Source: Muribaculaceae bacterium (GTDB taxonomy: Bacteria > Bacteroidota > Bacteroidia > Bacteroidales > Muribaculaceae). From it: a stretch of 64,000 nt of DNA. The position numbers and the translations under genes were made by a program. Positions 27,951 to 32,796 of this stretch are shown one piece after another (within the stretch, counting starts at the first letter, position 1; each line of letters begins with the position of its first letter). The stretch covers positions 19,121 to 83,120 of the forward strand of contig JAIEBK010000051.1 in the NCBI GenBank assembly GCA_029070945.1, given 5' to 3'. Under the pieces are notes generated by a model. It was not told where the DNA came from. It did no database searches and was given only the letters and a program-made list of their open reading frames with translations.

Positions 27951-30035
27951 ATGAAAAAGATTTTCTTAATTCCAGCATTGGTATGCGCTATGCTTAGCCC
28001 TATCACGGCTGCTGCGCAGGATGACGCAGATGAACCCGTACAGAAACGGGATTACAATTTTAAGTCAGCTAAACCGCTGACACAGATAGAATCGCTTTAC
28101 TCGGCGATAATGGCAGCCACACCCAAGGGTGTGCAGAATACACTCGGACTCGAGCTTATAGAAAGCAAGGACAGTATCCGGAGAATGGCACTCAACCCGA
28201 CCGGCATTAACGTCGCCGTAGTCAAGAAAGACAAGAAGGGCCGCTACTATCTCGAGACTATCACAACCGACGGAGATGCTGAAAAGATCATGAGTTTTGA
28301 CTCCAAGCATCTCGGAATTCCTTATGCAGCGGCTTTCACTCCTGACGCGCGTCAGCTTGCGGTTGCCACCGAAAAGGGCACATACCTGTTCGAGACAAAA
28401 AAATTCAAGCCGGTCGGAGAAGCTCCGGCGTTCACGAACCATCCTGACATGATCGTCTTCAGTCCGAATCAGTACTTTCTCGCGGCTGCCGGCGACAAGA
28501 AAGTGGAAGTGATGAACTTCGAAGATAAGACCATGCGACGCACGCTGAATCCCGGCGAAGCCGTCACTGACGTGGTCTTCTCAAAATCAAGCGATGATAT
28601 GGCCGTGCTTACAGCAGACGGTATGGTTGAGATATACGACACCCGTTCCTTCAACGTGCGTCTCATGATCGAAGACCTCGACAACGGTATTGCCTGCGAC
28701 TTCAACGCTGACGGTAAATACCTCGCGGTGGTGGCCGACAACGACAAAGTGACCGTCGTCAACCTCCTCAAGCCTGAAGACAGAATCATTTTCGATGTCC
28801 CGGAGGCTACTATCAGCGATGTCCTTTTCATTGCTGACGCCAACGATAATCCGGTGCTCGCAGCCTCTACCGAAAAAGGAATCAGCGCCCGCCGCATGAA
28901 GCTTGAGCCTTATTACGCCAAGCTTGTCAGCGACGAAGTGGACATGAAGATGAGCGAGTGGCTCAAGAAAATGCCAAACGAGACCATGGAAGAATATCAG
29001 CTTCGTGTCAACGACGAGACCCGCGCCAAGCAGCGCCGCCTATTCGAAGACGAGATCTCCACAAGCCTTGCCGGAAACCTCACAGCTATGTCGACCGTAA
29101 GCCTCGGCCAGTATGACGCCGACAACGAAGTGCTTGCCGTGAACTTCGACAACATGCCTACCATCTTCCTCCCGATGCCACGCGAAGACCTCGGAGCCAT
29201 CAACTCAGCCAATGACCTTACAATCAGTGACCAGCAGTATGGTCTTCTCGGCGACGACACATTCGAGCTCATATACGCTAAGTTCACCAACAACAAGACC
29301 GGGGCCGAATACATCTACGACAATATCAACCGTAAGCCCATGGAGTTCATGAACAACGACAATATCGTCTCGATCGAGCTTGTACAGCAACAGATGATGG
29401 AGGAGGTGAAACTCGAGGAACTCAAGGAGCAGGTGATGCAGGAGGCTAAAAAGGATAATATCATTTCCGACCACACACAGATCGCCGTTAACTCGGAGGT
29501 GATTCCTGACTATGACGCCAACGGCAATAAGATCCTGAACTACAACGTCAGCTTCCAGTATCAGGTAGATCCGGAATTCTCCGCTCAGGAAGACTTCGCT
29601 CCCGGAAAGTATCGGGCTGAGCAGTCAGGCGCCGCATCCTCGATGCTCAATATCGTCAAGAATGCTTTTGAAGGAGACTTCGCCAACTATGTGAAGCAGG
29701 GCAAGCGTCTCAACGTTAAGATATCAGGAACAGCCGACTCCTCCCCTATCCGAAGCACTATCGCATATGACGGTGCATACGGCGACATCGAAAACGAGCC
29801 TATCTATCAGGACAATAAGATGAGCGCTATCACAGTTACCCAGAAAGACGGCATAAAGAGCAACGAGCAACTCGCTTTCCTGCGTGCCTACGGCGTGAAG
29901 GAATTTCTTGACAGCAATGTGGCCGGCCTCAAGGACATGGATACACGCTACACCTACAATATCGGCGTAGCTGAAGGAAAGGGTTCAGAATTCCGTCGCA
30001 TTACGGTTGAATTCACCTTCGTCGACGCATTCTAA
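27951..30035 (+). CDS. Exported WD40-like beta-propeller protein with an unnamed central domain and a degenerate OmpA-like C-terminal domain
   Basis: Signal peptide ...ITAAA|QD; repeats FTPDARQLA, FSPNQYFLA, FSKSSDDMA, FNADGKYLA; C-terminal GTAD...NEQLAFLRA..V..FL...FRRITV. Confidence 0.8.
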   Translation: MKKIFLIPALVCAMLSPITAAAQDDADEPVQKRDYNFKSAKPLTQIESLYSAIMAATPKGVQNTLGLELIESKDSIRRMALNPTGINVAVVKKDKKGRYYLETITTDGDAEKIMSFDSKHLGIPYAAAFTPDARQLAVATEKGTYLFETKKFKPVGEAPAFTNHPDMIVFSPNQYFLAAAGDKKVEVMNFEDKTMRRTLNPGEAVTDVVFSKSSDDMAVLTADGMVEIYDTRSFNVRLMIEDLDNGIACDFNADGKYLAVVADNDKVTVVNLLKPEDRIIFDVPEATISDVLFIADANDNPVLAASTEKGISARRMKLEPYYAKLVSDEVDMKMSEWLKKMPNETMEEYQLRVNDETRAKQRRLFEDEISTSLAGNLTAMSTVSLGQYDADNEVLAVNFDNMPTIFLPMPREDLGAINSANDLTISDQQYGLLGDDTFELIYAKFTNNKTGAEYIYDNINRKPMEFMNNDNIVSIELVQQQMMEEVKLEELKEQVMQEAKKDNIISDHTQIAVNSEVIPDYDANGNKILNYNVSFQYQVDPEFSAQEDFAPGKYRAEQSGAASSMLNIVKNAFEGDFANYVKQGKRLNVKISGTADSSPIRSTIAYDGAYGDIENEPIYQDNKMSAITVTQKDGIKSNEQLAFLRAYGVKEFLDSNVAGLKDMDTRYTYNIGVAEGKGSEFRRITVEFTFVDAF

Positions 30036-32796: not shown

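Follow-up and report, generated by a model that had tools for sequence, protein, structure and literature searches.

Two adjoining genes of a Muribaculaceae bacterium, one coding for a WD40 protein (g1) and one for a caspase-like protease (g2), raise the question whether their products have a domain in common and what such a domain might do. Both genes lie in a 64,000-nucleotide stretch of contig JAIEBK010000051.1 (the whole stretch analysed, called the window here), and all window features given below are on its + strand. The 694-aa product of g1 (27951..30035) starts with a signal-peptide-like N-terminus, followed by a WD40 beta-propeller (28044..28904, aa ~32-318; Pfam E 2.9e-15), a segment termed domain X (28911..29324, aa 321-458), a helix with a beta hairpin, and a C-terminal domain that appears to be OmpA-like. 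The 882-aa product of g2 (30148..32796) combines a signal-peptide-like N-terminus, a TPR region, a second X (31453..31878, aa 436-577), a linker and a Peptidase C14 caspase-like domain (32053..32748; PF00656, E 1.4e-20), of which the catalytic dyad is intact (His714 in YSGHG and Cys764 in DACFSG).

Three genes for exported-looking proteins complete the operon, which is closed by a 20-bp hairpin, a likely terminator (36595..36639). No direct Pfam match was obtained for g3 (32769..33698, 309 aa), but its homologues matched DUF4384 and, weakly, FlgT_N. The product of g4 (33809..34429, 206 aa) was linked weakly to LPP20 via a distant homologue with 17% identity. The product of g5 (34652..36562, 636 aa) has the motifs DCEDRA, PGHE and ADPT, with a putative Cys555/His582/Asp set, and matched 4fgo weakly (E 0.4); it is presumably transglutaminase-like. 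The gene g5 is doubled or tripled in several relatives (L002, L006, L009, L010, L098 and L099), with N-terminal and linker lengths that vary. Judged by eye, the N-termini of all five operon proteins look like signal peptides. A sigma-70 promoter scan of the locus gave matches at chance level. Close relatives of the locus were assigned to Muribaculaceae, Sangeribacter, Porphyromonadaceae or Bacteroidales. The order g1-g2-g3-g4-g5 was identical in all nine loci listed (of 11), and in close relatives the operon keeps a stable position between a pullulanase-like gene and a GTPase gene, presumably TypA-like. Full-length g1 was present in 14 of 36 genomes of the genus, and g2 adjoined it in all 14.

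The four motif pairs from which the initial annotation had proposed a ~140-aa domain common to the WD40 protein and the caspase were all found in frame at the coordinates of the two segments. BLASTP aligned g1-X with g2-X at 21% identity over 149 columns (E 4e-5), and their Smith-Waterman score of 78 was reached by none of 5000 shuffles (mean 29.1, SD 4.9). HHalign of the two segments, which the annotation had suggested as a check, was significant when 14 orthologous segments were compared with 14 (probability 96.1%, E 2.9e-9, 126 columns). When a profile of each copy was searched against the ORFs of the genome, the partner gene was the single other match at E<0.1 (E 1.3e-5 and 4.2e-3). The homology of the two X copies is thereby confirmed. 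No similarity between them was detected at the DNA level, so their kinship must be old.

The predicted folds, which the annotation had also wanted compared, agreed as well. In the AlphaFold2 models of both copies, three helices come first, then a beta pair, one further helix and finally three strands; the two models were compared by secondary-structure order only, and the pLDDT was 93.7 for g2-X alone and 86.5 for the WD40 protein. The g2-X model is an alpha+beta structure of ~140-165 aa with five strands. Searches with the X model gave no match at E<=1e-3 with Foldseek in the PDB or in the BFVD, and the best hit of a wide VIA fold search (Z 5.6 over 57 residues) consisted of generic helices; these empty searches do not show that the fold is new. 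Searches with the whole g1 model returned propellers only, among them 3ow8_A (VIA Z 29.9, rmsd 2.8, 276 aligned residues), and PDB sequence searches for X, the g1 tail, g4 and the caspase gave nothing significant.

That the domain has no name holds at threshold, since X gave no such match in Pfam, NCBIfam or PHROG, but a weak link to DUF4852 (PF16144) qualifies it. The window copies had no Pfam match at E<=0.1, PF16144 included, and the best PF16144 match among 40 X members (E 0.0057) was under the Pfam cut-off. DUF4852 resembles X in its N-terminal motifs, EFE..R followed by G.YD..F, and the Atlas feature score was 0.77. Two stand-alone proteins found with PF16144 matched the first half of X in searches with the X profile (E 5e-14 and 1.6e-13), and HHalign of these bridge proteins with X reached 96.8% over 66 columns. 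Direct comparison of X with stronger DUF4852 members gave 21-37%, and of the bridge proteins with those members 3%. Because these direct profile comparisons are weak, X would be at most a remote relative of DUF4852 and the kinship is a lead only. A literature search found no paper with the term DUF4852. Weak Pfam matches to KTSC, RXYLT1_C and DUF1905 were rejected because they were inconsistent across members, as were sporadic matches in PHROG and NCBIfam. The bridge proteins themselves (L179:1174-1962 and L180:1189-1977, both on the - strand) are exported-looking, have ~230 aa, and adjoin a gene that presumably codes for a relative of fumarate hydratase. A search for short homologues of X scored 0 of 640 candidates; since stand-alone X relatives exist, this search was insensitive here.

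To survey the family, a profile of 19 X sequences was used, which matched 1656 clusters (at 50% identity) at E<=1e-3, of which 1046 at 1e-10. Domain partners, the listing of which the initial annotation had also proposed, are given for the best 150 of these clusters, a set biased towards the query. A C14 caspase stands behind X in 118 of the 150 representatives, within 60 residues of X in 99 of these 118, while some of the 32 caspase-less representatives may be contig-end fragments. Both catalytic dyad motifs were found by pattern in 98. A signal-peptide hydrophobicity heuristic was passed by 122/150 representatives, compared with 64/1828 internal control windows. Pfam scans, covering 132 of the 150, revealed many interchangeable binders N-terminal to X, namely WG, LRR_5, TPR, WD40, Sel1, MORN, Fib_succ_major, F5/8, LamG, FGE-sulfatase, OmpH, TonB_C and LysM; in some representatives outer-membrane barrels or TonB_C replace the caspase on the C-terminal side. 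WD40, X and caspase occur in one chain in P0362. Two X copies were found in 5/150 representatives; in four of the five the copies lie close, with the first copies grouping apart from the second ones. Two WD40 proteins with two X (P0121 and P0220) resemble frameshifted chimeric gene calls and were left out of this count. The residues W, E and R of the X signature are invariant and YD is near-invariant. X appears to be a folded, conserved module of predicted-exported Bacteroidota proteins that belongs to no recognisable catalytic family. In P0292, P0298, P0302, P0311 and P0364, the place of the caspase behind X is taken by a different C-terminal domain of ~130 aa, likewise unannotated (FPF/YvvfRVkLeG motif).

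Most genomes with X have one copy. At the order level, X was found in 50 of 300 genomes, with one match in 39/50 and adjacent X genes in 2/50 when up to 13 candidates per genome were scored, so that divergent copies can escape; adjoining X pairs are accordingly rare outside the genus. At the class level, where two profiles were used of which the second included hits of the first search and the first did not, 22/250 genomes were positive and 20 of the 22 had one copy. A PF00656 search of five chosen X-positive genomes gave no match in three (G045, G071 and G179; 99-100% complete). Three X genes per locus were observed in L098:4675-13931 and L099:7777-16758, where an extra LRR-type X-caspase lies beside g1 and g2; in L100 the place of the extra gene is taken by an LRR-caspase that lacks X.

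Since X is almost always internal and has many interchangeable neighbours, it might be a rigid spacer or folding aid that reached both genes by old shuffling or duplication and does not pair. We regard this as unlikely, because the conservation of X equals that of the catalytic domain, because X keeps invariant polar residues, and because some complete genes (L028, L031/L107, L179 and L180) have it at the C-terminus or code for little else. Among eight orthologues, the mean pairwise identity within g1 was 64% for X, 63% for the OmpA-like domain and 43% for WD40, its least conserved part, and within g2 58% for the caspase, 53% for X, 51% for TPR and 33% for the linker.

In the phylogeny, g1-type and g2-type X formed separate clades (support 100/100 and 99/92), and the genome pairings matched between the two subtrees. 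Identity between g1-X and g2-X was 22-28% within loci and 21-23% for the window pair. The window copies as sisters were rejected (p-AU 6e-5), whereas the whole g1 and g2 clades as sisters, an ancient duplication that the spacer explanation could draw on, were not (p-AU 0.28). The g2 copy has the canonical signature (W..RGEFEK..DY..R; YD..NE; VP...EA..FK..W). In g1-X the KGEFE motif is replaced by MPGE/MPNE in 14/14 sequences, and its median net charge is -11.5 as opposed to -1 (~-11 for the window copy). Because signature and charge have changed and yet 64% identity has been kept, g1-X appears to be specialised rather than decayed. With KGEFE lost and such strong acidity, it may no longer pair like a canonical X. 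CARDs that pair are also divergent in sequence, so the low identity between g1-X and g2-X does not exclude binding.

The initial annotation had further placed X between a repeat domain and a C-terminal effector in both proteins. A repeat region indeed precedes X in each, but the tail of g1 (29586..30032; GTAD ... NEQLAFLRA ... FRRI) does not look like an effector. Pfam OmpA (PF00691) matched 3/10 aligned homologues of this tail (best E 5.7e-5) and left the window copy unmatched, and HHalign of the tail with five OmpA domains of the same genome gave 47% (E 2e-4). The conserved Asp and Arg of OmpA-like domains bind peptidoglycan, and both positions are invariant in the g1-tail alignment. There is weak to moderate evidence that the C-terminus of g1 is OmpA-like and has a beta hairpin inserted and, since it reads as OmpA-like, it is probably a peptidoglycan anchor. 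The tail (window 29361-30032, L146, L147, L148, L149 and L108) looks like a mobile, divergent OmpA-like family of its own with an inserted hairpin (YdGeyG motif); this family was found in 4/250 class genomes, joined to a caspase or to unrelated N-termini.

These envelope features weigh on the function that the annotation had proposed, in which X-X contact would recruit the caspase to the WD40 sensor as in an apoptosome. Carried through, this model would have the sensor detect an invader, and the outcome would be defence or cell death. Adjacent genes with a common small domain, one on an intact caspase, fit this idea, as do the patchy distribution in the genus (14/36) and the variable N-terminal repeats (WD40, TPR, LRR, WG and Sel1), which recall those on gasdermin-associated proteases (10.1101/2021.06.07.447441). 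However, all five operon proteins look exported and the g1 tail is a probable peptidoglycan binder. By profile searches no STAND NTPase, NACHT/NB-ARC or recognised toxin was found among the operon proteins, and a NACHT search of the genome (83% complete) gave nothing above cut-off. The gene order is stable beside housekeeping genes, the GC content of the operon is the same as in the rest of the window, and WD40, although the least conserved part of g1, is still 43% identical. X as an obligate sensor-effector pair is further opposed by the single copies (39/50), the X-positive genomes in which no C14 match was obtained, locus L108 (see below) and the non-sister window copies. The full model is therefore very unlikely.

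The reading that we tentatively favour is that X is a self-associating envelope module, by which g1 would tether the TPR-caspase to what is probably a peptidoglycan anchor. It accommodates the most observations with the fewest assumptions, since it covers single and tandem copies, carriers that have no caspase, and the specialised copy in g1; a single X would form a homo-oligomer and a tandem X a covalent pair. Caspases are activated by dimerisation, and in its commonest setting, with a variable binder in front, C14 behind and one gene per genome, X could be the caspase's own oligomerising pro-domain. In the locus studied here, the divergent g1-X would pair with g2-X and couple the TPR-caspase to the peptidoglycan anchor in the periplasm, and the complex, joined by its DUF4384-like, LPP20-like and transglutaminase-like partners, might carry out localised, regulated proteolysis in the envelope. 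The co-inheritance of g1 and g2 fits such pairing but is expected of any operon, and the weak OmpA assignment of the g1 tail counts against this reading.

Rearranged loci bear on this coupling. In L146, propeller, OmpA-like domain and caspase form one chain, and the OmpA-like domain occupies the X slot; the X-less fusion of OmpA-like domain and caspase was seen in L146/L150. In L108, a WG-X protein adjoins another such fusion that lacks X, and homologues of g4 and g3 come next. The direct fusion of both domains in two other loci argues for joint action of the g1 tail and the caspase in one complex. X is the only module common to the g1 and g2 chains, and pairing of X copies on separate chains may here replace the direct fusion seen elsewhere. 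Because such fusions occur and tandem X proteins exist, X-X coupling between g1 and g2 is plausible.

It is nearly as good an account, and a possible one, that X binds a third envelope component, such as the cell wall, an outer-membrane protein, a lipoprotein, the caspase itself or the g3/g4 pair; g1 and g2 would then both dock to it, or make X-caspase contact, and X copies would not pair. This would suit the single X in most positive genomes and the L146 chain, in which an OmpA-like domain stands between propeller and caspase. It would also suit L108, where an X protein lies beside an X-less caspase and X-X pairing is therefore not required for the system. A ligand site could be built from the invariant W, E and R and the near-invariant YD. 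In the four genomes with both X and a g3 homologue, the two lie within ~5 kb in 4/4. Against it, g3 was not found in 18/22 X-positive genomes, an OmpA-like domain is already present in g1, the signature loop and charge of g1-X differ, and no ligand was identified. Self-association remains the reading that we prefer.

X can be compared with the domains EAD1-10, for which PMC7159879 describes a terminal position, close kinship of adjacent copies, and fusion to a core component of a conflict system, of the MoxR-vWA or GTPase type. Like an EAD, X is a small alpha+beta, presumably non-enzymatic domain on adjacent genes, the second copy being on an enzyme (X + C14 in g2), and the parts that it would couple are fused in other genomes; for EADs, homotypic coupling was proposed (PMC7159879). 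Unlike EADs, X is internal in both window proteins and terminal in few relatives, its carriers look exported, most genomes have one copy of it, and the two window copies fall into separate clades instead of being nearest kin; no VMAP, iSTAND, Ubl or GAP1 core domain was found in the five proteins. The death folds (CARD, DED, PYD and DD) pair in apoptosomes, where they serve as caspase adaptors and a WD40 protein is a partner. X resembles such a system in being a would-be adaptor in front of a caspase with a WD40 partner, but it is alpha+beta, with five strands and another set of helices, and not a six-helix bundle, its operon has no STAND ATPase, and it is predicted to be extracytoplasmic.

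Prokaryotic C14 metacaspases with WD40, TPR or Sel1 repeats have been reported with likely signal peptides and, in some, peptidoglycan-binding fusions (PMC3501461), and g2, with its His-Cys dyad and repeats, resembles them. Exported-looking repeat metacaspases are thus known in general terms; neither X nor an operon with DUF4384, LPP20 and OmpA-like components is described in the accessible text of PMC3501461. C14 proteases fused to TPR, WD40 or LRR repeats are also associated with gasdermins (10.1101/2021.06.07.447441), which g2 resembles likewise. The operon differs from these systems in its envelope-type partners and in that no gasdermin gene was recognised in it, by a gasdermin search that matched no control either. 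In literature searches no description of X or of the operon was found, and the source data of PMC7159879 could still list related domains.

In the accessible literature, bacterial caspase-like proteases act in defence and cell death. X defines a large family (1656 clusters) of which the best-scoring members are mostly exported-looking and keep the dyad behind one constant, uncatalogued domain for which no solved-structure match was found. It offers a handle for cataloguing exported bacterial caspases, and its two 16-kDa copies a way to ask whether adaptors drive caspase assembly in the bacterial envelope. At its broadest, X would be a homotypic adaptor of alpha+beta fold, not described before, that does in the periplasm what death folds do elsewhere; it would assemble and activate exported caspases on a wall-anchored platform with a large repertoire of interchangeable sensors (WG, LRR, TPR, WD40, Sel1, MORN and lectin-like) across Bacteroidota. 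This extension we consider doubtful.

The wider module consists of the caspase with g3 and g4, with or without g5, and often lacks X: none was found in 14 of 18 g3-positive genomes, which counts against the self-association reading. An adjacent caspase was present in 7/8 of the X-less g3 loci fetched, among them a second locus of the window genome. This locus (G000:C76:1-3145, L159) has a g3-like gene, a gene for a 301-aa exported-looking protein and one for a caspase of 504 aa whose N-terminus is LRR-like, and no X. In L152:1-8735 and L155:4408-9816, two or three exported-looking caspases surround one g3/g4 pair, which suggests a shared scaffold with interchangeable proteases.
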